DNA of 64,000 nt from Escherichia coli (GTDB taxonomy: Bacteria; Pseudomonadota; Gammaproteobacteria; Enterobacterales; Enterobacteriaceae). Of this stretch, positions 4,183 to 57,110 are shown piece by piece (position 1 is the first letter of the stretch; the number at the start of each line of letters is the position of its first letter). Both the position numbers and the translations under genes were made by a program. The stretch is from NCBI RefSeq assembly GCF_013122565.1, contig NZ_CP053258.1. One strand, 5' to 3'. Under the pieces are notes generated by a model. It was not told the DNA's origin, made no database searches, and worked only from the letters and a program-made list of their open reading frames with translations.

Positions 4183-6207
<2,025 letters not shown>

Positions 6208-7465: not shown

Positions 7466-7494
7466 TTGATAAATAAAACTGAATTGCTTATCAA
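7466..7494. promoter_or_regulatory. Inverted repeat TTGATAA-N15-TTATCAA upstream of yfeH; candidate operator
   Basis: Palindromic arms read directly in sequence about 45-70 bp upstream of the yfeH start; function inferred. Confidence 0.25.
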
Positions 7495-8050
7495 TTTGTG
7501 CGCGAGGAGTGTGAGTGAGTTGCTCGCTCGCTTCGACTGGTTGGCAGAGCGGGGGAGGATATCCCGGATGAGACAAATAAGACGTTCGACAAGAGAATCA
7601 GGTGACTACAGAAAAAATCACAGGATGTTATTACTGCTGATGTTCATGTCGGTTTTCGCGTTATCAGAACTGGTTTTAGAACTGCTATTTAATCGATAAT
7701 GCCATTCTGCAGGAAAGCTTTACCTACTTTATTATTTGCGGTGTGGTAAAACCTGGTCACCAGAGGCAGGTTTAATACCAGACGCTGTCTTTTATCAGAT
7801 ATCCCATGTAAATAATAAATGCAATGAATATTAATTCATTATGTATTTATTTTGTGATTGTTTGGTGTTACTAGTTTGTTGGACAAATAACAACTCTAAC
7901 TAATACATAAACCTTGCATAGTGACAGAGTATCGATCTGAATGTTTTCAACATTGATATCAAATTGCAATTGATATCCGTGGTAAAAAGTATTGGTAAAT
8001 TTGATGAATTTCCGGATATTTAAAGGGGCGGCTCAAAGACGAAGGGGAAG

Positions 8051-9307: not shown

Positions 9308-9361
9308 TACGGAGTTTATCAAAATTAATAATGTTTTATAGGATTCGCAAAAGAGGAAGTT

Positions 9362-10273
9362 ATGGCAAATCAATTGTATAACCAGTGTCGGGTTTATTGT
9401 GCACCCTGGCGATTAGATGCTTTAAATTTAAATGATATCATTGATCAATGGATTGACGAGGGGCTGTTGCCGCCCCTGATCCATACTTTTCTTCCATATC
9501 GCGATGATGCCGGTGCCTCCAGTGAAGAAGAGATTTTTGTTAACGATGTCGCGAATATGGATAACAGTGTTGGGGTTATCGGTTATTTCGATGGTGGAAC
9601 CTATGATTCCGGTTATGCATGGGCTTTAGGGATGCCTGTTCACCTGGTAACGACAGACTTTCTTATATGGGCAGCGGGGAATTCTTCAGAGTTTTATCCT
9701 ATAAGTAAGCTGATGAATTATGTGGCAAAAGTGGTTTCTGTGTCAGATTCCGATACCAGTATCAGCAATTATCGTGAACAAACCGACGATATCATCAAGC
9801 GTGCGTTGCAAATTTTTCAACAAAATTTAATCGCCGACTTCGGCACGACGATTAATCCAGCAGTACCGGTTACTCCATTGCCGATTGAGTATGACTACTA
9901 TATTGATCCTAACTTTATGTATACCGAACCCTCTCGGGACTTACTGGTGAAGATCAAAGATGCGATCATTAGTGCAGGTAAGACTTTCATCGTTGGCGAC
10001 AACATGAATGATATTGCGACTGATATTGATAACTTAAGAAAATCCAGACAGGCCATCTTTTATTCCGATACCTTTGAGCCGAATGTTGACACCGGCATTA
10101 TGAATGGTATTGCCTATGCATTAGGACAGCAATCGATTATTTATTGTAGCAAGCAACAAAAATATCAATCTGCGCTCGCGACAGATTATTTAAATTTAAT
10201 GATTACCTGGTCGTCAACGGTGGCGCATTCATTTGCGGAACTTGAAACATTGATTGGTAACACAGAAAAATAA
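9362..10273 (+). CDS. Hypothetical protein with two repeats of a nucleoside 2-deoxyribosyltransferase-like (SLOG-like) motif
   Basis: 303-aa ORF; motif VIGYFDGGTYDSGYAWALGMPVHLV in the first half and AIFYSDTFEPNVDTGIMNGIAYALGQQSIIY in the second; N-terminal VYCAPW resembles the NDT IYFGAGWF motif; family assignment by eye only. Confidence 0.4.
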   Translation: MANQLYNQCRVYCAPWRLDALNLNDIIDQWIDEGLLPPLIHTFLPYRDDAGASSEEEIFVNDVANMDNSVGVIGYFDGGTYDSGYAWALGMPVHLVTTDFLIWAAGNSSEFYPISKLMNYVAKVVSVSDSDTSISNYREQTDDIIKRALQIFQQNLIADFGTTINPAVPVTPLPIEYDYYIDPNFMYTEPSRDLLVKIKDAIISAGKTFIVGDNMNDIATDIDNLRKSRQAIFYSDTFEPNVDTGIMNGIAYALGQQSIIYCSKQQKYQSALATDYLNLMITWSSTVAHSFAELETLIGNTEK

Positions 10274-10285
10274 TAGTTAATTTTA

Positions 10286-10328
10286 CTGATTATCAGGTGA
10301 GTGATTGCCTGATAATCAGCTTTTTGTT
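10286..10328 (+). terminator. Rho-independent terminator after the 303-aa ORF
   Basis: Perfect 12-bp inverted repeat ctgattatcagg / cctgataatcag with 10-nt loop, followed by cttttt. Confidence 0.65.
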
Positions 10329-10501
10329 AGCCACCAAAGAAAAATATACTGCCGTTATATTTCTCTGCCGGGGAACGATATGATCGATTTCAAAATTATA
10401 TTGAATATCTCTGGAAAATGTATTGGTCACTCGCGACTTTTTCTCGCTATAAAAAAATGTGACTCAGATCTAACGCATAATGCTTATTACAAGGACTTGC
10501 C

Positions 10502-11335
10502 ATGACCCAATCTCATTTTTCACAAAACCCGTGGTATTGCGCAGATATCATTCGTCGTCATAAACCAGACTTTACCCCACGCGTTGCGTTTATTTTGGGT
10601 TCGGGACTGGGAGCGCTGGCTGAACAAATAGAAGACGCAGTTGCCATTTCTTATAGCGATTTGCCGGGGTTTCCGGTGAGCACCGTACACGGCCATGCAG
10701 GAGAGTTGGTCCTCGGCGTGCTTTCTGGTGTGCCTGTAGCCTGCATGAAAGGTCGCGGTCATTTTTATGAGGGCCGGGGAATGACTGTCATGACTGATGC
10801 TATTCGCACGTTCAAGTTGCTGGGCTGTGAATTGTTGTTCTGCACTAACGCTGCAGGTTCGCTTCGCCCGGAAGTAGGGGCGGGTAGTCTGGTTGCGCTG
10901 AAAGATCACATTAATACGATGCCAGGCACACCGATGACAGGCCTTAATGATGAGCGTTTTGGTGAACGTTTTTTCTCATTAGCGAATGCTTACGATGCTG
11001 ATTACCGCGCCGTTTTACAAACCGTCGCGCATGAAGAAGGTTTTCCGCTGACAGAAGGGGTTTTTGTTTCTTATCCGGGGCCGAACTTCGAAACGGCGGC
11101 AGAAATTCGCATGATGCAGCTGTTTGGTGGCGACGTAGTAGGTATGTCTGTAGTGCCTGAAGTGATTAGCGCACGTCATTGCGAAATGAAAGTCGTTGCC
11201 GTGTCAGCAATAACCAACATGGCGGAAGGCTTAAGCGATGTGAAATTGTCGCATGCCCAAACCCTGGCTGCAGCAGAGTTATCACGACAAAACTTTATTA
11301 ATTTGATTTGCGGATTCTTACGCAAAATCGCCTGA
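10502..11335 (+). CDS. xapA: Xanthosine phosphorylase (purine nucleoside phosphorylase II)
   Basis: 277-aa ORF MTQSHFSQNPWYCADIIRRHKPDFTPRVAFILGSGLG..., PNP/MTAP fold. Confidence 0.93.
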   Translation: MTQSHFSQNPWYCADIIRRHKPDFTPRVAFILGSGLGALAEQIEDAVAISYSDLPGFPVSTVHGHAGELVLGVLSGVPVACMKGRGHFYEGRGMTVMTDAIRTFKLLGCELLFCTNAAGSLRPEVGAGSLVALKDHINTMPGTPMTGLNDERFGERFFSLANAYDADYRAVLQTVAHEEGFPLTEGVFVSYPGPNFETAAEIRMMQLFGGDVVGMSVVPEVISARHCEMKVVAVSAITNMAEGLSDVKLSHAQTLAAAELSRQNFINLICGFLRKIA

Positions 11336-11392
11336 AAACAATAAAAATGGCCTCGCGGATGGGGCCATCTCTCTGCGATAAGGAAACGAAAA

Positions 11393-12640
11393 ATGAATAT
11401 CGCAACGCGTTTAAAGGTAATGTCTTTCTTACAATATTTTATCTGGGGGAGTTGGTTAGTTACCCTCGGATCTTACATGATAAACACCTTACATTTTACC
11501 GGGGCTGATGTCGGTATGGCATACAGTTCTAAAGGCATTGCGGCCATTATTATGCCAGCCATTATGGGCATTATTGCCGATAAATGGTTACGGGCTGAAC
11601 GTACCTATATGCTGTGTCACTTAATTTGTGCCGGGGTGCTTTTTTATGCCGCCTCCGTAACTGAACCGAATATGATGTTCTGGGTGATGTTGCTTAACGC
11701 GATGGCTTTCATGCCCACGATTGCGTTATCCAACAGTGTTTCCTATTCGTGCCTGGCGCAGGCCGGATTAGACCCAGTCACCAGTTTTCCGCCAATCCGT
11801 GTTTATGGCACCGTGGGATTTATTGTCGCAATGTGGCTGGTGAGTTTATTGCATCTGGAGTTAAGTAGTGTGCAGTTGTATATCGCTTCTGGAGCATCTT
11901 TAGTGTTAGCGATCTATGCATTAACATTACCGAAAATTCCAGTGGCGGAACATAAAGCCAGTACGACGCTTTCCAGTAAATTAGGCCTGGATGCGTTTGT
12001 GTTATTTAAAAATCCGCGTATGGCGATTTTCTTTTTATTTGCTATGTTATTAGGTGCGGTACTGCAAATTACTAACGTTTTTGGTAATCCTTTCCTGCAT
12101 GACTTTGCCCGCAATCTTGAGTTTGCTGATAGCTTCGTGGTGAAATATCCATCCATTTTGCTCTCGGTTTCACAAATGGCGGAAGTCGGCTTCATTCTTA
12201 CCATTCCATTCTTCCTGAAGCGTTTTGGCATCAAAACCGTCATGTTGATGAGTATGGTAGCGTGGACGTTACGCTTTGGCTTCTTTGCCTTTGGCGACCC
12301 ATCGGCAGGTGGCTTTGTATTATTGTTGTTGTCGATGATTGTGTATGGCTGCGCGTTCGACTTTTTCAATATCTCCGGTTCAGTGTTTGTCGAGCAAGAA
12401 GTGGACTCCAGGATCCGCGCCAGCGCTCAGGGTTTATTTATGACTATGGTCAATGGCGTTGGGGCGTGGATTGGTTCTCTTCTGAGTGGCATGGCAGTTG
12501 ACTATTTCACGGTTGATGGCGTGAAAGACTGGCAAACCATCTGGCTAGTATTTGCTGCGTATGCACTGGCCTTAGCGGTGATTTTTGCCCTGTTCTTCCG
12601 TTATAAGCATGAACCTGATAAATGGCGCAGAAATCATTGA
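11393..12640 (+). CDS. xapB: Xanthosine permease (NHS family)
   Basis: 415-aa ORF MNIATRLKVMSFLQYFIWGSWLVTLGSYMINTLHFTG... directly downstream of xapA. Confidence 0.92.
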   Translation: MNIATRLKVMSFLQYFIWGSWLVTLGSYMINTLHFTGADVGMAYSSKGIAAIIMPAIMGIIADKWLRAERTYMLCHLICAGVLFYAASVTEPNMMFWVMLLNAMAFMPTIALSNSVSYSCLAQAGLDPVTSFPPIRVYGTVGFIVAMWLVSLLHLELSSVQLYIASGASLVLAIYALTLPKIPVAEHKASTTLSSKLGLDAFVLFKNPRMAIFFLFAMLLGAVLQITNVFGNPFLHDFARNLEFADSFVVKYPSILLSVSQMAEVGFILTIPFFLKRFGIKTVMLMSMVAWTLRFGFFAFGDPSAGGFVLLLLSMIVYGCAFDFFNISGSVFVEQEVDSRIRASAQGLFMTMVNGVGAWIGSLLSGMAVDYFTVDGVKDWQTIWLVFAAYALALAVIFALFFRYKHEPDKWRRNH

Positions 12641-12716
12641 CTCACTGATGTAAACAGGGTTTTCCTTGATTGCAATGTGCTAAGTTTGCAGCCTTACCCA
12701 TACCGCGTGGAGCGCA

Positions 12717-13607
12717 ATGATTATGGAAGGTACGCATCGTATTGATCTCAAGTTATTGCGCTATTTTCTTGCGGTCGCAGAAGAACTTCACTTTGGGCGG
12801 GCCGCTGCGCGGCTGAATATGTCGCAACCGCCATTAAGTATTCATATTAAAGATCTGGAGCAACAGTTGGGCACGTTGCTGTTCGTTCGTCATTCGCGCA
12901 GTGTGGCGCTCACTCATGCGGGGAAAATTTTACTGGAAGAGTCACGTCGTCTGCTGGCTAATGCCAGTCAGGCGTTGGCACGAGTAGAACAGATCGGTCG
13001 TGGTGAGGCAGGGCGCATTGAGCTGGGCGTGGTGGGAACCGCAATGTGGGGGCGAATGCGTCCGGTAATGCGGCGGTTTTTGAAAGAGTGCCCTAATGTT
13101 CATGTCTCATTTCGTGAAAAATCACCAGGGATGCAAATGGCATTGCTCGAGCGGCGGGAGCTGGACGCGGGTATCTGGCGGATGGCAATTGAACCCACGA
13201 CGGGATTTACCAGTCTGCGATTACACGAATCTTCGTTTTTGGTGGCGATACCGGAAGATCATCATCTGGCTTGCGAAAACGCTATCCCGTTAATGGCATT
13301 ACGCAATGAATACTTTGTGACGCTGCCATCGGTCCATTCCGACTGGGCGTTTTTACAGCGTGTCTGTCAGCAGGCAGGGTTTTCACCGATGATCGTTCGG
13401 GAGGCCGTAGAACCGCAAACCGTACTGGCGATGATCAGTATGGGGCTGGGTGTGACATTAATGGCAGATAGCTATGCCCAAATGAGCTGGCCGGGTGTGG
13501 TATTTCGTCCACTCGAGGAACGTATTCCAGCAGATTTGTATATTGTTTATGAACAGCAACAGGCAACACCAGCGCTGGAGAGATTAGTTAATGCTTTGAT
13601 AGCATGA
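12717..13607 (+). CDS. xapR: LysR-type transcriptional activator of xapAB
   Basis: 296-aa ORF with N-terminal LysR HTH (LKLLRYFLAVAEELHFGRAAARLNMSQPPLS); start could be the second Met at 12723. Confidence 0.9.
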   Translation: MIMEGTHRIDLKLLRYFLAVAEELHFGRAAARLNMSQPPLSIHIKDLEQQLGTLLFVRHSRSVALTHAGKILLEESRRLLANASQALARVEQIGRGEAGRIELGVVGTAMWGRMRPVMRRFLKECPNVHVSFREKSPGMQMALLERRELDAGIWRMAIEPTTGFTSLRLHESSFLVAIPEDHHLACENAIPLMALRNEYFVTLPSVHSDWAFLQRVCQQAGFSPMIVREAVEPQTVLAMISMGLGVTLMADSYAQMSWPGVVFRPLEERIPADLYIVYEQQQATPALERLVNALIA

Positions 13608-13626
13608 AAGAAGATATCGCAGATAG

Positions 13627-13656
13627 CAAAAAAGCGCCTTTAGGGCGCTTTTTTGC
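13627..13656. terminator. Bidirectional rho-independent terminator between xapR and lysV
   Basis: aaagcgcc-ttta-gggcgcttt hairpin with A run upstream and T run downstream. Confidence 0.6.
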
Positions 13657-13658
13657 AT

Positions 13659-13734
13659 TGGTGGGTCGTGCAGGATTCGAACCTGCGACCAATTGATTAA
13701 AAGTCAACTGCTCTACCAACTGAGCTAACGACCC
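13659..13734 (-). tRNA. lysV: tRNA-Lys (anticodon UUU)
   Basis: Reverse complement reads GGGTCGTTAGCTCAGTTGGTAGAGCAGTTGACTTTTAATCAATTGGTCGCAGGTTCGAATCCTGCACGACCCACCA. Confidence 0.95.
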
Positions 13735-13738
13735 GAAG

Positions 13739-13814
13739 TGGTGGGTGATGACGGGATCGAACCGCCGACCCCCTCCTTGTAAGGGAGGTGCTCTCCCAGC
13801 TGAGCTAATCACCC
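13739..13814 (-). tRNA. valY: tRNA-Val (anticodon UAC)
   Basis: Reverse complement reads GGGTGATTAGCTCAGCTGGGAGAGCACCTCCCTTACAAGGAGGGGGTCGGCGGTTCGATCCCGTCATCACCCACCA. Confidence 0.95.
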
Positions 13815-13860
13815 ACTTCGGTACTTCACATTTTTACAAGAAATTTAGCTGGCGAGAAAG

Positions 13861-13936
13861 TGGTGGGTGATGACGGGATCGAACCGCCGACCCCCTCCTT
13901 GTAAGGGAGGTGCTCTCCCAGCTGAGCTAATCACCC
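13861..13936 (-). tRNA. valX: tRNA-Val (anticodon UAC)
   Basis: Identical copy of the tRNA-Val sequence. Confidence 0.95.
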
Positions 13937-13980
13937 ACTTCTCAATTTCTTGCTACACGGCGGAGACTACATAAAGTAGT

Positions 13981-14056
13981 TGGTGGGTGATGACGGGATC
14001 GAACCGCCGACCCCCTCCTTGTAAGGGAGGTGCTCTCCCAGCTGAGCTAATCACCC
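13981..14056 (-). tRNA. valU: tRNA-Val (anticodon UAC)
   Basis: Identical copy of the tRNA-Val sequence. Confidence 0.95.
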
Positions 14057-14314
14057 CCGCTGTGTGGAGTCGCATTATAGGGAGAGTTCAAAATGAGTCA
14101 ACGCATTTTCTAAAGAAATTGTTCGTTCGTCGTAAATTTAAGCAAGATGATCGCAAAACAGACCGTGTTGCGCAATTTGTCAACGAAAACAATAATGCGT
14201 AAGGTTGCAACCCGAACTACATTGAGGAATCAGGCGGGAGTGATAGAATATCGCCCACTCAATTTTTCCAGGATTTGCCGGTTGTCGGCATCTTTCTAAA
14301 CGTAAGGCCATTTC

Positions 14315-15730
14315 ATGAAAATCAAAACTCGCTTCGCGCCAAGCCCAACAGGCTATCTGCACGTTGGCGGCGCGCGTACTGCTCTTTACTCCTGGCTTTT
14401 TGCACGTAATCACGGCGGTGAGTTCGTGCTGCGTATTGAAGACACCGATCTTGAGCGTTCCACGCCGGAAGCTATCGAAGCCATTATGGATGGCATGAAC
14501 TGGCTGAGCCTGGAGTGGGATGAAGGTCCGTACTTCCAGACCAAACGTTTTGATCGCTACAACGCGGTGATCGATCAGATGCTGGAAGAGGGCACAGCTT
14601 ATAAATGCTATTGCTCTAAAGAGCGCCTGGAAGCGCTGCGCGAAGAGCAAATGGCGAAAGGTGAGAAGCCGCGTTATGACGGTCGCTGCCGCCACAGTCA
14701 TGAGCATCACGCTGATGATGAGCCGTGTGTCGTACGTTTTGCTAACCCGCAGGAAGGTTCTGTTGTTTTTGACGATCAGATCCGTGGTCCGATCGAGTTC
14801 AGCAACCAGGAACTGGACGATCTTATTATCCGCCGTACCGATGGTTCCCCAACCTATAACTTCTGTGTGGTTGTCGATGACTGGGATATGGAAATCACCC
14901 ACGTTATCCGTGGCGAAGACCATATCAACAACACGCCACGCCAGATCAACATTCTTAAGGCCCTGAAAGCGCCAGTGCCGGTTTACGCGCACGTTTCTAT
15001 GATCAACGGCGATGACGGTAAAAAACTGTCCAAACGTCACGGGGCGGTCAGCGTAATGCAGTATCGTGATGACGGTTATTTGCCAGAAGCACTGCTGAAC
15101 TATCTGGTGCGTCTGGGCTGGTCCCACGGCGATCAGGAAATCTTCACTCGTGAAGAGATGATCAAATACTTCACCCTGAATGCCGTCAGCAAATCTGCCA
15201 GTGCGTTCAACACCGACAAGCTGCTGTGGCTGAACCATCACTACATTAATGCGCTGCCGCCGGAGTATGTTGCTACTCACTTACAGTGGCACATTGAGCA
15301 GGAAAATATCGATACCCGTAACGGCCCGCAGCTGGCTGAGCTGGTGAAACTGCTGGGCGAACGCTGCAAGACGCTGAAAGAGATGGCACAGAGCTGCCGT
15401 TATTTCTACGAAGATTTTGCTGAGTTCGATGCCGACGCCGCGAAAAAACATCTGCGCCCAGTAGCGCGTCAGCCGCTGGAAGTGGTTCGTGACAAACTGA
15501 CTGCGATTACTGACTGGACCGCTGAAAACGTTCATCACGCTATTCAGGCGACGGCGGATGAGCTGGAAGTGGGTATGGGTAAAGTTGGTATGCCGCTGCG
15601 TGTCGCCGTAACCGGTGCGGGGCAGTCTCCGGCACTGGATGTTACCGTTCACGCAATCGGTAAGACCCGCAGTATCGAGCGTATCAACAAAGCTCTGGCT
15701 TTTATTGCGGAACGTGAAAATCAGCAGTAA
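14315..15730 (+). CDS. gltX: Glutamate--tRNA ligase
   Basis: 471-aa ORF with class I HIGH-type motif ([13 protein letters not shown]) and KLSKR (KMSKS-type) motif. Confidence 0.97.
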
Positions 15731-15747
15731 TTAGCGCATAAAAGATA

Positions 15748-15779
15748 AACGGCAGGAGAAATACCCCTGCCGTTTTTTA
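15748..15779. terminator. Bidirectional terminator between gltX and yfeD
   Basis: ggcagg...cctgcc hairpin followed by tttttt. Confidence 0.55.
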
Positions 15780-15780
15780 T

Positions 15781-16173
15781 TCATGCTGATTCATCTATGT
15801 CGAGACGAGCAAGGAAATTACGAATTCCTTCGCGTGACAAAAATTGCGCAACTTTTTCCTGCTCACTGTGAGTCATGTTGTCTATTGCGCTGATGATTTG
15901 CCGATAAGCAGGAGTGCGAATCCCCGGTGCGTATTCGGCAAGGGGTTCTTCGGCTTCCAGAAGCATCGGTGTGTTATGGAAGGCTGGCGTGTTCTGAATA
16001 AACTCGCAAACTTGCGTATCGACCAGAATAAGTCTGGCACGACCGCCTTTCACGCCGGGAAATTTTTCCGTTTTCCAGCCTTTTTCTCTGATCCAACGGT
16101 TAACAGTTTGTTTAGCCACACCGAGGCATTCAGCCAGTTCTTCGGTGGTCATTTTATTGCGTAATCTTTTCAT
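15781..16173 (-). CDS. yfeD: Putative DNA-binding protein YfeD (HTH)
   Basis: 130-aa ORF; N-terminal MTTEELAECLGVAKQTVNRWIREKGW HTH; paralogue of adjacent yfeC. Confidence 0.85.
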   Translation of the reverse strand: MKRLRNKMTTEELAECLGVAKQTVNRWIREKGWKTEKFPGVKGGRARLILVDTQVCEFIQNTPAFHNTPMLLEAEEPLAEYAPGIRTPAYRQIISAIDNMTHSEQEKVAQFLSREGIRNFLARLDIDESA

Positions 16174-16174
16174 A

Positions 16175-16534
16175 TTATTTGCTATCGCGAATCCCTAAGC
16201 GTTGTAACAATCCGATAATCCCTTCCCGCAGAAGCAAGGATGTAAACTGTTTTTGTTCAACTGGCGTCATCTCTTTCGCCAGTGTCACCAGCAATACTTC
16301 AAGCGGCGCATCACCAGAAAGGGCAGGCGTTTCTCCCTGACTTTCCGGACGTTCAGCATTGCGAATATATTCACGAACCTGTTCATTGACGTGAACCAGT
16401 CGGGCTTTGCCACCCTGGACGCCAGGTTTTGGTGACGTTGTCCAGCCTTCCTTGCGTACCCATTTATTAATGGTCTGGCGGCTATAGCCGGTCAGTCTGG
16501 CAAGTTCATCTGGCGTCATCCTCTCCTTGAACAT
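16175..16534 (-). CDS. yfeC: Putative DNA-binding protein YfeC (HTH)
   Basis: 119-aa ORF; N-terminal MTPDELARLTGYSRQTINKWVRKEGW HTH; tandem paralogue of yfeD. Confidence 0.85.
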   Translation of the reverse strand: MFKERMTPDELARLTGYSRQTINKWVRKEGWTTSPKPGVQGGKARLVHVNEQVREYIRNAERPESQGETPALSGDAPLEVLLVTLAKEMTPVEQKQFTSLLLREGIIGLLQRLGIRDSK

Positions 16535-16754
16535 AACAATTCCCTGAATGTATGTGGGTCTATTAGTAGTTCATTTTATAACACCACTTTACAGGAAACC
16601 GTGACATGAATAACTACTGAATGCGAGCGGTTTTCCAAAATTGTTCATTTGCCTGATTTTTCAGCGATTGAAACTACACGTTGCAATTTGCCGTTGACAC
16701 ATTCGGACGGAATTCATATGATGCCGCCCGTCAACTCGACAAGCTTTACGTGAC

Positions 16755-16830
<76 letters not shown>

Positions 16831-16869
16831 AATTTTGCACCCAGCAAATTTGGTACGTAAACGCATCGT

Positions 16870-16945
<76 letters not shown>

Positions 16946-16951
16946 AATTTC

Positions 16952-16980
16952 AAACCCTCGCTGCAAAGCGGGGGTTTTTT
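16952..16980 (+). terminator. Rho-independent terminator after the alaX-alaW tRNA pair
   Basis: ccctcgc-tgcaaa-gcggggg hairpin followed by ttttttg. Confidence 0.65.
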
Positions 16981-17152
16981 GTCTCTGCTTTTTGCCGCTT
17001 TTGTAATACAGTCTATGTTCGGGTTAGCGCCGCCTGGTGAAAGCATCATTGGATGAAAAATCGGCAACAGGCTGGCCCCTGTTTGCTTCGCGATGCGAAT
17101 AAACTTATTATTTGTGTGCCTGAAAACCCCGATCAGTGAGAGTAGTGTACTC

Positions 17153-19342
17153 ATGTTTGTGGAGCATAACCTGATAAAAAATATCAAGATATTCACACTA
17201 GCGTTTACGCTCACCGTGGTACTTATTCAGCTATCCCGTTTTATTTCGCCACTTGCTATTATCCATTCCAGTTATATCTTTCTGGCGTGGATGCCACTGT
17301 GCGTAATGCTGTCAATCTTGTTTATCTTTGGCTGGCGCGGTGTCGTTCCCGTTTTATGCGGAATGTTTTGCACCAATCTGTGGAACTTTCATCTCTCTTT
17401 TTTACAGACTGCGGTCATGCTCGGCAGCCAGACGTTTGTCGTGTTGTGTGCCTGCGCAATATTACGCTGGCAGCTAGGGACGCGTTGGCGTTATGGATTG
17501 ACCAGCCGATATGTCTGGCAACGTCTGTTCTGGCTTGGTTTGGTGACGCCGATCGGCATCAAATGCAGCATGTATCTTGTGGGGAGCTTCTTTGATTTCC
17601 CGCTAAAGATTTCCACCTTTTTCGGCGATGCGGATGCCATTTTCACGGTCGTTGATTTGCTAAGCCTTTTCACCGCGGTGCTGATTTACAACATGCTTTT
17701 CTACTATCTCACTCGCATGATTGTAAGTCCCCACTTTGCGCAGATATTGTGGCGCAGGGATATCGCTCCGTCGTTGGGCAAAGAGAAACGCGCATTTACC
17801 TTAAGCTGGCTGGCAGCGTTAAGCGTGCTGCTACTTCTGTTGTGCACACCTTATGAAAACGACTTTATTGCCGGTTACCTGGTACCCGTTTTCTTCATCA
17901 TCTTTACCCTCGGGGTCGGTAAGCTTCGCTATCCGTTTTTAAATCTCACCTGGGCTGTTTCAACGCTTTGCCTGCTGAATTACAACCAGAACTTTTTACA
18001 AGGGGTGGAAACCGAATATTCGCTGGCATTTATTCTCGCGGTGCTGATTTCCTTTAGCGTTTGCCTGCTCTATATGGTGCGCATTTATCATCGCAGTGAA
18101 TGGCTTAATCGACGCTGGCATTTGCAGGCGCTGACCGATCCGTTAACGCTCCTACCCAACTTTCGTGCGTTGGAACAAGCACCGGAGCAAGAGGTGGGCA
18201 AGAGTTTTTGCTGCCTGCGCATTGATAATCTTGAGTTTATGAGTCGTCATTACGGGTTAATGATGCGCGTTCACTGTATCCGCTCAATTTACCGTACGCT
18301 GCTGCCGTTGATGCAGGAAAACGAAAAGTTGTATCAATTGCCGGGCAGTGAACTGCTGTTAGTGCTGAGCGGGCCGGAAACGGAAGGGCGACTCCAGCAT
18401 ATGGTTAACATCCTGAATAGTCGGCAAATTCACTGGAACAATACCGGGCTGGATATGGGCTATGGTGCTGCCTGGGGGCGTTTTGATGGAAATCAGGAAA
18501 CCCTGCAACCCTTGTTGGGGCAGTTAAGCTGGCTGGCGGAGCAATCCTGCGCACATCATCATGTGCTGGCGCTGGATAGCAGAGAGGAGATGGTTTCCGG
18601 GCAGACCACTAAACAAGTGCTATTGCTGAATACCATTCGCGCGGCGTTAGATCAGGGGGATTTGCTGCTCTACGCCCAGCCCATTCGCAACAAAGAGGGT
18701 GAAGGTTATGATGAGATCCTCGCGCGACTGAAATATGACGGCGGCATTATGACCCCGGATAAGTTTCTGCCCCTTATTGCTCAGTTTAACCTTAGCGCGC
18801 GTTTTGATTTGCAAGTGCTGGAATCCCTGTTGAAGTGGCTTGCAACACACCCTTGCGACAAAAAAGGTCCACGCTTTTCAGTCAATTTAATGCCGCTCAC
18901 GCTGCTGCAAAAGAATATTGCCGGGCGGATTATTCGTCTGTTTAAGCGTTATCACATCTCCCCGCAGGCGGTCATTCTTGAGATCACCGAGGAGCAGGCG
19001 TTTTCTAACGCAGAAAGCAGCATGTACAACATCGAGCAGCTGCATAAGTTTGGTTTCCGGATTGCGATTGATGACTTTGGCACCGGCTATGCCAACTACG
19101 AACGGTTAAAGCGTTTGCAGGCTGATATCATCAAAATTGATGGCGTCTTTGTGAAAGATATCGTCACGAACACGCTGGATGCGATGATTGTGAGATCAAT
19201 TACCGATCTGGCGAAAGCGAAGTCATTGAGTGTGGTCGCGGAGTTTGTCGAGACGCAACAGCAGCAGGCGCTATTGCATAAGCTCGGGGTGCAATATCTG
19301 CAAGGGTATTTGATTGGTCGCCCGCAGCCATTAGCTGATTAA
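17153..19342 (+). CDS. pdeA: Membrane-anchored EAL-domain c-di-GMP phosphodiesterase (MASE1-type sensor)
   Basis: ORF 17093-19342; start placed at MFVEHNLIKN; multiple N-terminal TM helices and C-terminal EAL domain (EITEEQ...DDFGTGYANYERLK). Confidence 0.9.
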   Translation: MFVEHNLIKNIKIFTLAFTLTVVLIQLSRFISPLAIIHSSYIFLAWMPLCVMLSILFIFGWRGVVPVLCGMFCTNLWNFHLSFLQTAVMLGSQTFVVLCACAILRWQLGTRWRYGLTSRYVWQRLFWLGLVTPIGIKCSMYLVGSFFDFPLKISTFFGDADAIFTVVDLLSLFTAVLIYNMLFYYLTRMIVSPHFAQILWRRDIAPSLGKEKRAFTLSWLAALSVLLLLLCTPYENDFIAGYLVPVFFIIFTLGVGKLRYPFLNLTWAVSTLCLLNYNQNFLQGVETEYSLAFILAVLISFSVCLLYMVRIYHRSEWLNRRWHLQALTDPLTLLPNFRALEQAPEQEVGKSFCCLRIDNLEFMSRHYGLMMRVHCIRSIYRTLLPLMQENEKLYQLPGSELLLVLSGPETEGRLQHMVNILNSRQIHWNNTGLDMGYGAAWGRFDGNQETLQPLLGQLSWLAEQSCAHHHVLALDSREEMVSGQTTKQVLLLNTIRAALDQGDLLLYAQPIRNKEGEGYDEILARLKYDGGIMTPDKFLPLIAQFNLSARFDLQVLESLLKWLATHPCDKKGPRFSVNLMPLTLLQKNIAGRIIRLFKRYHISPQAVILEITEEQAFSNAESSMYNIEQLHKFGFRIAIDDFGTGYANYERLKRLQADIIKIDGVFVKDIVTNTLDAMIVRSITDLAKAKSLSVVAEFVETQQQQALLHKLGVQYLQGYLIGRPQPLAD

Positions 19343-19350
19343 CAGGCGTA

Positions 19351-19382
19351 AAAAAGCCGGGGAATTATCCCCGGCTTTTTTA
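19351..19382. terminator. Bidirectional terminator between pdeA and nupC
   Basis: aaaaaagccgggg-aatta-ccccggctttttt, perfect hairpin with A and T tracts on both sides. Confidence 0.7.
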
Positions 19383-19391
19383 TGTATGGTC

Positions 19392-20594
19392 TTACAGCAC
19401 CAGTGCTGCGATTGACGCCGACAGCACACTCACCAGGGTAGAGCCGTAAACCAGTTTCAGACCGAAGCGAGAAACCACGTTACCTTGCTCTTCATTCAGG
19501 CCTTTAACTGCACCTGCGATAATCCCGATTGATGAGAAGTTAGCGAAGGAAACCAGGAACACAGAGATGATGCCTTCAGCACGCGGAGAGAGCGTGGAAG
19601 CAATTTTCTGCAGATCCATCATCGCAACGAACTCGTTGGAAACCAGTTTGGTCGCCATGATACTGCCCACTTGCAGTGCTTCACTGGAAGGAACACCCAT
19701 CACCCATGCAATCGGATAGAAGATGTAGCCCAGGATGCCCTGGAAGGAGATGCTGTAGCCAAACCAGCCAGTCACGGTGGCAAACAGTGCGTTCAGCGCG
19801 GCGATCAGGGCGATAAAGCCAATCAGCATTGCGGCAACGATAATGGCAACTTTGAAACCTGCCAGAATGTATTCACCCAGCATTTCGAAGAAGCTCTGAC
19901 CTTCGTGCAGGTTGGACATCTGAATGTTTTCTTCACTGGCATCAACACGGTAAGGGTTGATCAGCGACAGCACGATAAAGGTGCTGAACATGTTAAGTAC
20001 CAGCGCCGCAACGACATATTTCGGCTCCAGCATGGTCATGTATGCACCAACGATGGACATAGAAACGGTGGACATCGCCGTTGCTGCCATGGTGTACATA
20101 CGATTGCGGGAGATTTTGCCGAGGATATCTTTATAGGCAATAAAGTTTTCAGACTGACCCAGAATCAGGGAGCTGACGGCGTTAAAGGATTCCAGTTTGC
20201 CCATACCGTTGACTTTGGAGAGCAGGAAACCAATTGCGCGGATAATCACCGGCAACACGCGAATGTGTTGGAGAATACCGATCAGTGCAGAGATAAAGAC
20301 GATTGGGCACAGCACTTTCAGGAAGAAGAATGCCAGGCCTTGATCATTCATGCTACCAAAGACGAAGTTAGTCCCTTCGTTGGCAAATCCGAGCAGTTTT
20401 TCGAACATTTCGGAGAAGCCTTTCACGAAGCCTAAACCAACGTCGGAGTTCAGGAAGAACCACGCCAGTAACACTTCGATAACAAGCAGTTGAATAACAT
20501 AACGGATACGAATTTTTTTGCGGTCGCTGCTTACCAGCAGTGCGAGAATCGCAACAACGGCAAGTGCCAGTACAAAATGAAGGACGCGGTCCAT
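19392..20594 (-). CDS. nupC: Nucleoside permease NupC (CNT family)
   Basis: ORF 19392-20633; start placed at [21 protein letters not shown], giving the 400-aa length I recall for NupC. Confidence 0.93.
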
Positions 20595-20860
20595 ATTTGC
20601 TCCAAATATGAGGCAGGTTAAATTTCCGTGCACATTCTATGTAACATGGTTAAGGAAAACGAGATCTGACACACACTATAATGACGTCCTGTGACAAGCT
20701 TCAAAAATAGTGATCTGCCATACATTTCTGCTATGTTGTGTATGGAAGCTGAAAGTTATGTAAATGTGCTAACATTAAACATAACCATAACATTCGAGTC
20801 ATCAATCTTTTCGTAGTCATAATCCTGGTCTATCAGAGAAATCACCACAACCCATTTAAA

Positions 20861-20880
20861 TGAATTTGATAATCATTCTC
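20861..20880 (+). promoter_or_regulatory. Fur box in the mntH promoter
   Basis: tgaatttgataatcattctc resembles the Fur consensus GATAATGATAATCATTATC. Confidence 0.6.
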
Positions 20881-20895
20881 GTTTGGCATAGCATG

Positions 20896-20917
20896 AAACA
20901 TAGCAAAGGCTATGTTT
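20896..20917 (+). promoter_or_regulatory. MntR operator in the mntH promoter
   Basis: Palindrome aaacatagc-aaag-gctatgttt immediately upstream of the mntH start. Confidence 0.65.
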
Positions 20918-20920
20918 TAG

Positions 20921-22168
<1,248 letters not shown>

Positions 22169-22175
22169 TTGAATG

Positions 22176-22287
<112 letters not shown>

Positions 22288-22308
22288 GTGCTCCATTGGC
22301 AAATGTGT

Positions 22309-22635
22309 TTAATGGCGGTGCCCATGTCCGCGGCCTTTTCCGCGATGATCGTCACGATCGCGCCAGCCTTCACGATAGCCACGCTCATACGCTTTACGCT
22401 TATCCCAGCCACGGTGGTAGCCATTATCATGACGCCACCAGCGGTTTTTACGCCATTCATAATTGCGATGCCAGTAGTCACGGTCGCGCCAGTGACCACC
22501 GTCCCAGTAATTACCGTAATGATCGCGATCGCCAATTTGTAATTTGATTGATGGCAGTAGGGTGATTTCACCTGCGTTTGCCGCAAGCGGGGTAAATGCC
22601 ATCAGGGCGGCCGCCAGAAACAGTGACCTGAACAT
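22309..22635 (-). CDS. ypeC: Secreted DUF2502-family protein YpeC (His/Arg/Trp-rich)
   Basis: 108-aa ORF with signal peptide [21 protein letters not shown] and low-complexity [18 protein letters not shown]...GHGHRH. Confidence 0.85.
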
Positions 22636-22749
22636 TGTTATTCTCCTTCACGATCGAAGCCGTCAGCGGCCTGTTAACGCAATATTACGGGGAGGTAAAG
22701 CCCCGTATCATCGCCATAACTCTTAAATCATAAAGGAGAGCATTTTTTG

Positions 22750-24006
22750 CTAAACGTTATCGTGGGGTGGCTGTTGCTTCGGACGATTGACCATCATCAT
22801 CGGCTTACCTGCTAATAACAGCCATGCCGGAAGCATGACGATACAGAGCAGCGGTAGCAAGGTGGTATTGGGTACAACGACTGCCGCCATAAAAAGACTT
22901 AACCAGCCATCACGTGTTACCACCAGCACGATGCCGAGAATAGCGCAGGAAACGGTTATTGCCGCTGGAACGGCGGGTACGTGCTCATGCAGCATCAACC
23001 CTAATGCCACGCCGACAAACACTGCCGGGAAGATTCGTCCACCGCGAAAGCCACTGGCGGCAGCAACGACCAGGGCGGTAAGTTTAATTACCGCCAGCAA
23101 AAAGTAATCGCTGGTGCTGAAAGCCTGATTTGCCACCATCTGCTGCATCTCATCCAGTCCTTTAAACAGCGAAACCGGCCCACCAATAACCCCCAGAATA
23201 CCGAGAATAAATCCGCCAATACCCAGCACGAGCACCGGATTTTTCATTTGATGCATCATCGCGTGCAATCGTGGTAAGCACCATACGGCGACCATCCCTG
23301 CTGCGATGGCAATCGCCGCGACAATTGCACCGCTGAGAATATCGGTCATTTCCATCTGTCCGTAATGCGCAATGGGCAGTGAAAAATGAGGATGGAAAAA
23401 TAATCCGGTAGTAAGTGCACCAGCTGCTGCCGCCATTAACGGCGCAAAGAGACGATCCCATAGCGGAACTTCACTACTGCCATTTAAGGTTTGCGAAAAT
23501 ATCAACGCCGCCGCAACAGGTGTGCCAAACAGTGCGCCAATGGTTCCGGCAGAGGCTAAAATAGTCCACTCCATTCGGTTGACGCGCGGTAACAGACGAG
23601 CGCCAATGGCGACGGCAAGGGCGATATTGACGGTCATGATCGGATGTTCCGGCCCCAGGCTGACGCCGCCAGCAAGACCGAGAATTAATGCTACGATAAG
23701 TCCAGGTAGCGCAGAGGGCGGAACCGGTGCGCCGATCAGCGGTTCACAGGCGGGGTCTGGTCCGGCATGACCCTGGCTGAAACGGATAACCAACCCCACC
23801 GCAATACCCGTTAGCGTTAATACACCGATGATCCAGAGGGGTGAATCCTGGGCTATCCCCAGAGTTCCCGGCAGTCGTTGCCAGAGCAAATTCTGTAATA
23901 CCGAGGCGATTTTCATCACCACAATCAGAATAAGACTGGACGCAATCCCAATTGCCACGGCGGGGAGCGATAATAACAACATGGTTCTGGCTCGCGGATG
24001 GAGCAT
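22750..24006 (-). CDS. yfeO: ClC-family voltage-gated chloride channel-like transporter
   Basis: 418-aa polytopic membrane ORF, Gly/Ala-rich ClC-type helices. Confidence 0.85.
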
Positions 24007-24209
24007 GTTCTATTCCTTATGCGGGGTCAGATACTTAGTTTGCCCAGCTTGCAAAAAGGCATCGCTGCAATTGGTGCTGAAACGATAAAGTAATTGTGTG
24101 ACCCAGATCGATATTTACAGGGAGCCTGCCTTTCCGGCGTTGTTGTTATGCCCCCAGGTATTTACAGTGTGAGAAAGAATTATTTTGACTTTAGCGGAGC
24201 AGTTGAAGA

Positions 24210-25175
24210 ATGACAAAGTATGCATTAGTCGGTGATGTGGGCGGCACCAACGCACGTCTTGCTCTGTGTGATATTGCCAGTGGTGAAATCTCGCAGGCTA
24301 AGACCTATTCAGGGCTTGATTACCCCAGCCTCGAAGCGGTCATTCGCGTTTATCTTGAAGAACATAAGGTCGAGGTGAAAGACGGCTGTATTGCCATCGC
24401 TTGCCCGATTACCGGAGACTGGGTGGCAATGACCAACCATACCTGGGCGTTCTCAATTGCCGAAATGAAAAAGAATCTCGGTTTTAGCCATCTGGAAATT
24501 ATTAACGATTTTACCGCTGTATCGATGGCGATCCCGATGCTGAAAAAAGAGCATCTGATTCAGTTTGGTGGCGCAGAACCGGTAGAAGGTAAGCCTATTG
24601 CGGTTTACGGTGCCGGAACGGGGCTTGGGGTTGCGCATCTGGTCCATGTCGATAAGCGTTGGGTAAGCTTGCCAGGCGAAGGCGGTCACGTTGATTTTGC
24701 GCCGAATAGTGAAGAAGAGGCCATTATCCTCGAAATATTGCGTGCGGAAATTGGTCATGTTTCGGCGGAACGTGTGCTTTCTGGCCCAGGACTGGTGAAT
24801 TTGTATCGCGCAATTGTTAAAGCCGACAACCGCCTGCCAGAAAATCTCAAGCCAAAAGATATTACCGAACGCGCGCTGGCTGACAGCTGCACCGATTGCC
24901 GCCGTGCGTTGTCGCTGTTTTGCGTCATTATGGGCCGTTTTGGCGGCAATCTGGCGCTCAATCTCGGGACATTTGGCGGCGTGTTTATTGCGGGCGGTAT
25001 CGTGCCGCGCTTCCTTGAGTTCTTCAAAGCCTCTGGTTTCCGTGCCGCATTTGAAGATAAAGGGCGCTTTAAAGAATATGTCCATGATATTCCGGTGTAT
25101 CTCATCGTCCATGACAATCCGGGTCTTCTCGGTTCCGGTGCACATTTACGCCAGACCTTAGGTCACATTCTGTAA
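24210..25175 (+). CDS. glk: Glucokinase
   Basis: 321-aa [24 protein letters not shown]... (ROK/glucokinase ATP-binding motif). Confidence 0.96.
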
Positions 25176-25393
25176 ATCCTTCCTGTTATATCGGGAGATA
25201 ACTCTCCCGATAATCTTTTAAATCATACAGTTAATTCAATTTTTCTTTGTGTCCCCTCACAAGGCCGACCTGCGTCACACTTCCGTACAGCGGGATTAAT
25301 TCTCCAGTAAATGCATTATTTGTCTGGTAACGGCGATTTGTTTTGCACGTTCATAATTTCACTCGTCAACTATCACTGAACGAGGAATTAACG

Positions 25394-25720
25394 ATGAGTA
25401 AGAAACTGATTGCCTTATGTGCCTGCCCGATGGGCCTGGCTCACACTTTTATGGCCGCTCAGGCGCTGGAAGAAGCAGCGGTAGAAGCCGGTTATGAAGT
25501 GAAAATTGAAACCCAGGGCGCGGACGGTATCCAGAATCGCCTGACGGCGCAGGATATCGCCGAAGCGACAATCATCATCCACTCCGTGGCAGTTACCCCG
25601 GAAGATAACGAGCGTTTCGAATCACGCGACGTTTATGAAATCACTTTGCAGGACGCAATTAAAAACGCTGCGGGCATCATCAAAGAAATCGAAGAGATGA
25701 TTGCCTCTGAACAACAGTAA
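25394..25720 (+). CDS. fryB: PTS fructose-like IIB component
   Basis: ORF 25343-25720; start placed at MSKKLIALCACPMGLAHTFMAAQ (IIB Cys phosphorylation site). Confidence 0.88.
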   Translation: MSKKLIALCACPMGLAHTFMAAQALEEAAVEAGYEVKIETQGADGIQNRLTAQDIAEATIIIHSVAVTPEDNERFESRDVYEITLQDAIKNAAGIIKEIEEMIASEQQ

Positions 25721-25741
25721 TATTCGACAGGGATAATTGTT

Positions 25742-26989
25742 ATGGCCATTAAAAAACGCAGTGCAACCGTTGTGCCTGGCGCATCCGGTGCGGCAGCGGC
25801 AGTTAAGAATCCGCAGGCCTCTAAAAGCAGCTTCTGGGGTGAACTCCCGCAGCATGTGATGTCAGGGATTTCACGCATGGTGCCGACCTTAATTATGGGC
25901 GGTGTGATCCTCGCTTTCAGCCAGTTGATTGCTTATAGCTGGCTTAAAATTCCTGCTGATATCGGCATCATGGATGCTCTTAATAGCGGAAAATTCTCCG
26001 GTTTCGACCTCTCCTTACTGAAATTTGCCTGGCTGTCGCAGTCCTTCGGCGGCGTGTTGTTTGGTTTTGCCATTCCGATGTTTGCTGCTTTTGTGGCGAA
26101 CTCTATCGGTGGCAAATTGGCGTTCCCGGCTGGTTTTATCGGCGGGTTGATGTCTACCCAGCCGACGCAACTGCTGAACTTCGATCCCAGCACTATGCAA
26201 TGGGCGACCTCTTCGCCGGTGCCGTCCACCTTCATTGGTGCCCTGATTATTTCTATCGTTGCTGGTTACCTTGTGAAGTGGATGAACCAGAAAATCCAGT
26301 TACCGGATTTCCTGTTAGCGTTCAAAACCACATTTTTGCTACCGATTCTTTCCGCCATTTTTGTCATGCTGGCGATGTACTACGTCATTACCCCATTTGG
26401 TGGCTGGATCAACGGCGGTATCCGTACCGTGCTGACTGCCGCAGGTGAGAAGGGCGCGCTAATGTATGCGATGGGGATCGCCGCGGCGACAGCAATCGAC
26501 CTTGGTGGACCGATCAACAAAGCCGCAGGTTTCGTTGCCTTCAGCTTTACCACTGACCACGTATTACCGGTCACCGCACGTTCTATCGCTATCGTTATTC
26601 CGCCGATTGGTCTGGGGCTGGCGACCATTATTGACCGTCGTTTAACCGGCAAACGCCTGTTCAATGCTCAGCTTTATCCGCAGGGTAAGACCGCGATGTT
26701 CCTGGCGTTTATGGGGATCAGTGAGGGTGCGATTCCGTTTGCGCTGGAAAGCCCCATCACCGCCATTCCGTCGTATATGGTCGGCGCGATTGTCGGCTCA
26801 ACCGCCGCTGTCTGGCTGGGCGCAGTGCAATGGTTCCCGGAGTCCGCTATCTGGGCATGGCCGCTGGTCACTAACCTTGGCGTCTATATGGCGGGGATCG
26901 CGCTGGGGGCAATCATTACAGCGCTGATGGTGGTGTTCCTGCGTCTGATGATGTTCCGCAAAGGCAAATTGTTAATCGATAGCCTGTAA
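25742..26989 (+). CDS. fryC: PTS fructose-like IIC permease component
   Basis: 415-aa polytopic membrane ORF downstream of fryB. Confidence 0.88.
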
Positions 26990-27003
26990 GAAGGAAAATC
27001 CAG

Positions 27004-28089
27004 ATGACATTACTCGCTTCGCTGCGCGACTGGCTTAAGGCGCAACAACTGGATGCGGTGCTTCTCTCATCACGGCAGAACAAACAGCCGCATCTGGGGA
27101 TCTCCACCGGATCAGGCTATGTGCTGATTAGCCGTGAAAGTGCGCACATTCTGGTGGATTCGCGATATTACGCGGATGTGGAAGCCCGCACGCAAGGCTA
27201 CCAGCTGCATTTGCTTGACGCGACGCACACGCTTGCAACCATCGTCAATCAAATCATTGCCGATGAACAGATACAGACGCTCGGTTTTGAAGGTCAGCAG
27301 GTGAGTTGGGAAACCGCGCACCGCTGGCAGTCTGAACTCAATGCGAAACTGGTTAGCGCCACGCCGGATGTGCTGCGGCAAATCAAAACGCCAGAGGAGG
27401 TGGAGAAAATCCGCCTTGCCTGTGGGATTGCCGATCGCGGTGCAGAGCATATTCGCCGCTTTATTCAGGCGGGGATGAGCGAGCGCGAGATAGCCGCTGA
27501 ACTGGAGTGGTTTATGCGCCAGCAGGGCGCAGAAAAAGCCTCTTTTGACACCATTGTCGCCAGCGGCTGGCGTGGGGCGCTACCGCACGGCAAAGCCAGC
27601 GACAAGATTGTTGCAGCGGGCGAGTTTGTCACTCTCGATTTCGGTGCGCTCTATCAGGGCTACTGCTCTGATATGACGCGCACCTTGCTGGTGAATGGCG
27701 AAGGGGTGAGCGCCGAATCTCATCCGCTGTTTAACGTCTATCAGATTGTTTTGCAGGCACAGCTTGCGGCAATCTCTGCAATTCGCCCCGGCGTGCGCTG
27801 CCAGCAGGTTGACGACGCCGCGCGCCGGGTGATTACCGAGGCAGGTTTTAGCGACTATTTTGGTCATAACACCGGTCATGCTATCGGCATTGAAGTCCAT
27901 GAAGATCCGCGTTTTTCACCGCGGGATACCACGACGCTACAGCCAGGCATGTTACTGACCGTGGAGCCGGGGATTTATTTGCCAGGGCAAGGGGGCGTGC
28001 GCATCGAAGATGTTGTGCTGGTCACCCCGCAAGGCGCAGAAGTGCTCTACGCCATGCCGAAAACAGTGTTGCTCACGGGAGAGGCATAA
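27004..28089 (+). CDS. ypdF: Xaa-Pro aminopeptidase (M24 family)
   Basis: 361-aa ORF with M24 metal-ligand motifs ([19 protein letters not shown]). Confidence 0.88.
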
Positions 28090-29126
28090 TGGATTTATCG
28101 CTATTAAAAGCGTTGAGCGAGGCAGATGCGATCGCCTCCTCGGAACAGGAAGTGCGGCAGATCCTGCTGGAAGAAGCGGATCGCCTGCAAAAAGAAGTGC
28201 GATTTGATGGTCTGGGATCGGTGCTGATCCGCCTCAATGAATCGACAGGTCCGAAGGTGATGATCTGTGCGCATATGGACGAAGTGGGATTTATGGTGCG
28301 CAGCATCTCCCGCGAAGGGGCGATTGATGTGCTGCCGGTTGGCAACGTACGCATGGCTGCCCGCCAGCTGCAGCCGGTGCGCATCACCACCCGTGAAGAG
28401 TGCAAAATTCCAGGCCTGCTTGACGGCGACCGGCAGGGGAATGACGTCAGCGCCATGCGCGTGGATATTGGCGCGCGCTCGTATGACGAAGTGATGCAGG
28501 CGGGAATTCGTCCAGGCGATCGCGTCACGTTTGATACTACTTTTCAGGTTCTCCCTCACCAGCGGGTGATGGGGAAAGCCTTTGATGACCGCCTCGGTTG
28601 CTACCTGCTGGTGACGTTACTGCGCGAACTACACAGCGCTGAACTGCCTGCGGAAGTGTGGCTGGTGGCCAGTTCCAGCGAAGAGGTGGGGTTACGCGGC
28701 GGGCAAACTGCCACCCGCGCGGTGTCGCCGGACGTCGCCATTGTGCTTGATACCGCCTGCTGGGCGAAAAACTTTGATTATGGCGCGGCTAACCATCGCC
28801 AGATTGGTAACGGGCCGATGCTGGTGTTAAGCGATAAATCGCTGATTGCGCCGCCAAAACTTACCGCGTGGATTGAAACCGTGGCGGCAGAAATTGGCGT
28901 GCCGTTGCAGGCGGATATGTTCAGCAACGGCGGCACGGACGGCGGGGCGGTGCACTTAACCGGCACCGGCGTGCCCACGGTGGTGATGGGGCCAGCAACC
29001 CGCCACGGACATTGCGCCGCATCGATTGCCGACTGCCGTGACATTTTGCAGATGCAGCAGCTTTTATCTGCCCTTATTCAACGTCTTACGCGTGAGACGG
29101 TTGTTCAACTGACGGATTTCAGATGA
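28089..29126 (+). CDS. ypdE: M42-family aminopeptidase
   Basis: 345-aa ORF, start overlaps the ypdF stop; M42/FrvX-like. Confidence 0.88.
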
Positions 29127-29150
29127 TCTCCTGATTAACCCGGAGCGGTT

Positions 29151-31646: not shown

Positions 31647-31648
31647 CG

Positions 31649-32506: not shown

Positions 32507-32518
32507 GAAAGTTCCCGA

Positions 32519-56941: not shown

Positions 56942-57035
56942 TGAATAAAACTACGAGTTCCGGGTGTGCCTTATTCGGCCTGCTAGTTCGAATTTAATTT
57001 ACGGTTTTTTGTGGTTTTAGGGATAAATACAAGGA

Positions 57036-57110
57036 TGGTGTCCCCTGCAGGAATCGAACCTGCAATTAGCCCTTAGGAGGGGCTCGTTATATCCATTTAA
57101 CTAAGAGGAC
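57036..57110 (-). tRNA. argW: tRNA-Arg (anticodon CCU)
   Basis: Reverse complement reads GTCCTCTTAGTTAAATGGATATAACGAGCCCCTCCTAAGGGCTAATTGCAGGTTCGATTCCTGCAGGGGACACCA. Confidence 0.93.

Follow-up and report, generated by a model that had tools for sequence, protein, structure and literature searches.

In Escherichia coli K-12 MG1655 the convergent genes pdeA (yfeA) and nupC are parted by a copy of IS186, whereas in the 64,000-nucleotide stretch of E. coli DNA analysed here (contig NZ_CP053258.1 of assembly GCF_013122565.1, hereafter the window) they lie 49 bp apart. The locus raises the question of which arrangement is the native one, what the short gap consists of, and whether it ever held the element.

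A hairpin shared by pdeA and nupC

On the + strand, pdeA extends over positions 17153–19342 of the window, with a TAA stop at 19340–19342, and encodes a c-di-GMP phosphodiesterase with MASE1 and EAL domains. The nupC gene lies on the − strand at 19392–20594 (stop codon at 19392–19394 in + strand coordinates) and encodes a nucleoside:H+ symporter of 400 amino acids. NupC matches TIGR00804 with 486.7 bits, over the cut-off, and both gene names are also used in the RefSeq annotation of matching genomes. The differences from K-12 within the two genes are mostly synonymous, the DNA being ~98% identical while the proteins are identical in 726 of 729 residues (PdeA, 99.6%) and in all 400 (NupC, 100%) relative to MG1655. 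The mechanically delimited pdeA reading frame begins at 17093, ahead of the annotated MG1655 start by 20 codons, and includes 17093–17152 as extra sequence (749 vs 729 amino acids).

The convergent intergenic gap spans 19343–19391. The initial annotation had described it as 49 bp taken up essentially by one perfect bidirectional terminator. The length is exact, as the pdeA stop ends at 19342 and the nupC stop begins at 19392, and the gap holds a single 15-nt inverted repeat that is 100% complementary. Apart from this hairpin there is only spacer, ~6 nt on the pdeA side and ~9 nt on the nupC side, and no REP sequence was found within the 49 bp. The inverted repeat covers 19349–19382, with arms of 15 nt each at 19349–19363 (TAAAAAAGCCGGGGA) and 19368–19382 (TCCCCGGCTTTTTTA) that are separated by the 4-nt loop ATTA (19364–19367). 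Its G+C-rich core is an 8-bp stem in which GCCGGGGA (19356–19363) pairs with TCCCCGGC (19368–19375). Directly 3′ of the core stem, on the + strand, is a T6 tract (19376–19381) constituting a putative U-tract at the end of the pdeA transcript, and the A6 tract at 19350–19355, which reads as T6 on the − strand, is the corresponding putative U-tract for nupC. The stem core (19356–19375) begins 13 nt past the pdeA stop and 16 nt past that of nupC, giving predicted 3′ untranslated regions of ~38 and ~41 nt, respectively. RNA folding energies are −30.8 kcal/mol for the + strand and −25.0 kcal/mol for the − strand, with z ≈ −7.5 on both strands and none of 200 dinucleotide-preserving shuffles folding as well. 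The hairpin structure is real, and well beyond chance.

Rho-independent terminators that work in both directions are a general class at the junctions of convergent bacterial genes, and the hairpin is most likely one of them. For pdeA (+ strand), the stem and the U6 behind it would mark the end of the transcript, and for nupC (− strand) the stem would serve equally, again with U6 behind it. The sequence features expected of an intrinsic terminator are all present, i.e. a G+C stem, a short loop, a U run on both strands and proximity to both stops. In common with bidirectional terminators in general, the window has an A-tract upstream and a T-tract downstream of its short-looped G+C stem, and the hairpin falls within ~40 nt of both stop codons, although termination is here deduced from sequence. 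Structural upkeep is likewise indicated by covariation over eight taxa, a small sample in a hand-trimmed alignment: of the 12 stem pairs, 4 show compensatory double changes, every pair of the G+C core stays intact, and non-pairing cells are confined to the four outer A–U pairs.

The hairpin might instead serve mainly something other than termination, acting as a 3′ stem that stabilizes the message against exonucleases, as a protein-binding palindrome or as a small-RNA segment. The weak matches to Rfam families, present on either strand, could be taken in this direction, as could the fact that 3′ hairpins in general also stabilize mRNA. However, the six Rfam matches centred on the hairpin all lie far under the gathering score (≤29 bits against 45–90; for the best match 29.1 bits against a threshold of 48) and show only a resemblance to the terminator ends of various RNAs. 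Family membership was rejected, sub-threshold matches of this kind being typical of terminator ends in unrelated RNA models. Furthermore, in most taxa the A and T runs are conserved alongside the stem, a pattern that marks intrinsic terminators and not simple stabilizers, and stabilization of mRNA is in any case compatible with the terminator reading and no true alternative to it. A mainly non-terminating role is consequently considered highly unlikely.

A simple terminator scan flagged only a shortened site on the − strand (19372–19360), apparently missed the + strand site, and gave a regional total not above that of shuffled sequence. The + strand site was probably missed because the A and T tracts pair with one another and lengthen the stem. 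A promoter-like match at 19339–19368 (9/12) was rejected, as the region holds 6 such matches where 5.7 are expected by chance.

The site of IS186C in K-12

The initial annotation placed an IS186 copy between nupC and yfeA in MG1655, and this is borne out by NC_000913.3, where 'insertion sequence:IS186C' is annotated at 2514273–2515617, with insL3 (b2394), between nupC (b2393) and pdeA (b2395). Alignment around nupC, which had been proposed as the check, was carried out with BLAST, using 80 kb of MG1655 as the subject sequence. It returned two collinear alignments, both at ~98.07% identity, in which window 13615–19371 corresponds to MG1655 2521372–2515614 and window 19360–33635 to MG1655 2514276–2500001, with IS186 absent from the window. 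Over 13615–33635 the missing element is the sole break in collinearity. The two alignments share 12 bp of the window, 19360–19371 (GGGAATTATCCC), and this is the empty insertion point: the same 12 bp flank IS186 as a duplication in MG1655 and in further E. coli that carry the element. In MG1655 the direct repeats enclose 1337 bp, with perfect terminal inverted repeats of 22 bp. No match to the IS186 terminal repeat (ATAAGCGCTAACTTAAGGGTTG) was found in the 64-kb window with up to 3 mismatches allowed, nor was an IS186 (IS4 family) element identified there.

Because the duplicated 12 bp are window positions 19360–19371, IS186C in K-12 lies inside the hairpin and is not merely intergenic. The element parts the hairpin arms, and each gene keeps a 3-bp remnant stem and no U-tract. 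The junction and the flanking genes are the same in both strains, and removal of the element and of one 12-bp copy from the K-12 flanks yields the hairpin of the window; the window differs in having no IS186, a G instead of an A at 19356 and ~2% DNA divergence. In other words, the intact shared terminator is the K-12 IS186C site in its unoccupied form, which is unexceptional and in essence already known. The K-12 reference thereby represents a derived state at this junction, and since IS186 splits the hairpin in K-12, terminator maps made in that strain cannot show the native terminator shared by pdeA and nupC.

SaiSree et al. in 2001 reportedly described a hot spot for IS186 at the lon promoter. 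The window contains a vacant target of the form GGGG(AATTAT)CCCC (GGGGAATTATCCCC, 19359–19372), the only GGGG-N6/N7-CCCC sequence in its 64 kb. This count is unremarkable, as one GGGG-N6-CCCC in 64 kb compares with 0.58 expected, and at least one was obtained in 41 of 100 shuffles. According to Lee et al. 2016, the target of IS186 is the highly specific sequence 5′-GGGG(N6/N7)CCCC-3′, of which K-12 has just 19 N6 and 35 N7 loci, and owing to the palindromic flanks of the target the element inserts in either orientation (PMC5009759). Insertions in both orientations have been reported at other hot spots as well (PMC3045373). At the lon hot spot, re-sequencing revealed an IS186 insertion with a 12-bp ('+12 bp') duplication, and the element was reported to be unstable at that position, excising precisely (PMC3861542).

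As stem and loop together spell GGGG-N6-CCCC, the presumed terminator is at the same time a target of the IS186 transposase. The element has gone into the loop and stem in K-12 and in many other E. coli, with a 12-bp duplication and a divided hairpin as the result. The orthologous target is indeed occupied, with duplication, in MG1655, JNQH497 and Z0117EC0005, each carrying a 1337-bp IS186 flanked by GGGAATTATCCC. The window thus resembles the known IS186 hot spots in its exact N6 motif, and its relatives were likewise hit in both orientations with a 12-bp duplication. However, the motif here sits in a conserved stem-loop, the presumed terminator, rather than in a promoter or coding region, and use of the pdeA/nupC site is known from natural genomes, that of the window being vacant. 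None of the papers searched mentions IS186 and nupC together.

Junction states in E. coli and related taxa

The distribution of the two arrangements was determined with a 1049-bp query centred on the gap, run against 5426 complete RefSeq E. coli genomes, 5424 of which gave a match. The resulting counts describe a biased collection rich in K-12 derivatives and are not population frequencies. The junction is uninterrupted in 4460 of the 5424. Junctions of the K-12 type, with IS186 in place, were found in 474 genomes on the pdeA side and 472 on the nupC side, including many non-laboratory isolates, and a flipped IS186 occupies the identical position in 467 more. These flipped copies (e.g. JNQH497, ATCC 8739, ML35) are 100% identical IS186 elements with the same 12-bp duplication. 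By subtraction, ~18 genomes show other states. IS186 is accordingly present in the hairpin in ~17% of the complete E. coli genomes, in both orientations, and is not specific to K-12. Among the remaining arrangements, strain Stbl4 has an IS2 at or beside the IS186 site. In E. coli ST2747 (L006, ~4430–4760) nupC and the end of pdeA are missing; the alignment breaks off at position 431 of the 1049-bp query (window ~19273), ~70 nt before the pdeA stop, and a short unrelated A+T-rich stretch links pdeA to the mntH promoter region.

In a second haplotype the hairpin is doubled. Among E. coli, 13 genomes (e.g. EC42405, L005 801–930; also L010) have one REP between the two copies, and the haplotype differs from the common one on both flanks; in five genomes IS186 is present in its right-hand copy. 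Given that the single-hairpin and two-hairpin haplotypes are different, at least two independent IS186 insertions must have occurred, and if the flipped copies arose by new insertion rather than by inversion in place there would be a third. The conserved pdeA/nupC hairpin is thus a natural and recurrently hit landing site for IS186. In Z0117EC0005 (L009, 2637–3997) the element sits in the right-hand copy, which keeps GGGG-N6-CCCC, while the left-hand copy reads AGGG and was not hit. Such a pattern agrees with targeting that depends on the motif. The pdeA end, the hairpin and the REP also occur on a 50-kb plasmid record from that strain.

The outermost pair of the stem core, at 19356, is polymorphic: it is G–C in the window, an A·C mismatch in many E. 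coli including the K-12 flanks, and a compensated A–T in Salmonella. Since the A·C mismatch is found in many E. coli, a perfect stem is not required. That the mismatch in K-12 (AAAAAAACCGGGG) reflects decay following the insertion was considered and rejected. Of 60 evenly spaced rows inspected, 13 matched the reconstructed K-12 empty site, with A at the outermost stem position, from end to end at 100% identity, so that about one-fifth of E. coli genomes carry this allele uninterrupted. The mismatch is consequently older than the insertion, and the pre-insertion allele survives.

Outgroup loci, fetched via PdeA homologues, were drawn from taxa outside Escherichia. In every one of them pdeA and nupC are convergent and separated by one hairpin with flanking A and T runs, C. 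rodentium being without the A run. The gap measures 53 bp in Salmonella enterica, 66 bp in Citrobacter rodentium, 52 bp in Citrobacter amalonaticus, 45 bp in Enterobacter hormaechei, 53 bp in Leclercia adecarboxylata, 43 bp in Kosakonia radicincitans and 45 bp in one further relative. Escherichia, Salmonella and C. rodentium retain the GGGG-N6-CCCC sequence, and the other taxa differ in spacing or stem. Two further PdeA homologues at 87–90% identity (P0002 and P0008) were rejected as outgroups to Escherichia, as their loci are E. coli-like with ~98% DNA identity; in both, pdeA is truncated or frameshifted and the gap is the same 49 bp.

The suggestion in the initial annotation that the window preserves the ancestral junction is supported by these data, i.e. 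by the uninterrupted state of 4460 of 5424 genomes, the single hairpin of six outgroup taxa and the surviving empty-site allele of K-12. From this predominance in E. coli, the surviving allele and the outgroup hairpins it follows that an IS-free single hairpin is the ancestral form. The gap is thus very probably the native, vacant pdeA/nupC junction, likely combining a bidirectional terminator with an IS186 target and keeping the ancestral state. Judging from the aligned loci, the window retains the ancestral hairpin in its perfect G–C form.

A vacant site could also arise secondarily, if IS186 had once been present and was then lost by precise excision. Excision of this kind, as reported at lon (PMC3861542), would leave exactly the sequence of the window. 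However, the window is ~2% diverged from K-12 and has the G–C outermost pair, whereas the three single-hairpin IS186-bearing junctions that were read (from MG1655 and JNQH497) carry the A variant. In VE-T9 and XJ5.2, the complete genomes closest to the window, the junction is uninterrupted; empty sites dominate in E. coli and the outgroup genera share the single hairpin, so that no past insertion is required. Excision is therefore regarded as exceedingly improbable.

The two-hairpin haplotype suggests another possibility, namely that the single hairpin was itself derived by deletion from an ancestor with two hairpins, one for each gene, and a REP/BIME between them. The exact 24-nt hairpin core was found, among GTDB species representatives, only in Escherichia whittamii Sa2BVA5 (L007, 9200–9480), in which two hairpin copies surround two REP-like palindromes in DNA just 90–93% identical to the window. 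The spacer between the hairpins is homologous in E. whittamii and in the 13 E. coli genomes with their one REP, and direct repeats of 24 bp lend themselves readily to deletion. Against this, each of the six non-Escherichia outgroup taxa has just one hairpin, within a gap of 43–66 bp, and the two-hairpin form is rare, with 13 genomes plus five with IS186 out of 5424. By parsimony with these single-hairpin outgroups, in a comparison that within Escherichia covered E. coli and E. whittamii, the two-hairpin form would be the derived one, and descent of the window's hairpin by deletion is very unlikely. The ancestral single hairpin remains the preferred reading, and the resemblance to REP/BIME convergent junctions is limited to rare alleles of the locus, in which a REP lies between hairpin copies, while the window has none. 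An 83% match to the hairpin and REP between trpS and yhfZ was examined as a possible paralogue and rejected, the match deriving from the REP and a generic terminator shape.

The modest addition made here is that a putative terminator conserved across genera doubles as a recurrent natural target of IS186. The occupied hairpin is handy as a natural marker and might be used to test whether IS186 hot spots affect fitness. It is conceivable, albeit unlikely, that occupied alleles are kept at appreciable levels in phylogroup-A-like E. coli because the split terminator selectably alters expression of pdeA or nupC, with c-di-GMP turnover (pdeA) and nucleoside uptake (nupC) as the routes through which it might act. 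If true, such an effect would be relevant to a problem posed by Lee et al. 2016, namely whether selection acts on the target sites of IS186 themselves (PMC5009759).

The window and K-12

The initial annotation also took the missing element to argue that the window is not from an MG1655-like K-12. The claim holds, although the missing IS alone is weak evidence for it, given that IS186 is reported to excise precisely (PMC3861542). On the sequence comparison, the window is evidently not K-12, and decisive in this respect is the ~2% nucleotide divergence over the collinear parts (~98.07% identity to MG1655). Of the markers expected of an MG1655-like K-12, IS186C was not found at its site, CPS-53 was not found at argW (57035–57050), and the xap region is very different, at 70–77% identity. 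The window is E. coli-like but has no close match among complete RefSeq genomes, the best identity being 99.2% across the 1-kb junction and, with XJ5.2 and VE-T9, 98.6% across 21 kb.

Window 7486–13614 gave no megablast match to MG1655, which has xapR-xapB-xapA-yfeN-yfeR at this position, and because of this divergent block most E. coli match the 21-kb query at only ~95%. The block contains xapA, xapB and xapR alleles with 70–77% DNA identity to K-12, an additional nucleoside permease of the NupG/XapB family (8051–9307) and a 303-residue open reading frame with no NCBIfam match (9362–10273); yfeN and yfeR are absent. Also absent is CPS-53 (KpLE1), a cryptic prophage of 10.2 kb that follows argW in MG1655 (2466369–2476583). 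At window 57035–57110, around the tRNA-Arg (CCU) gene argW, the dsdC-side sequence runs straight into argW. Near yfdF/fadL (60111–63652), 60112–60272 is unaligned to MG1655 and identity falls to 85.7% over 60273–61705 and 94.1% over 61800–63652, compared with ~98% elsewhere.
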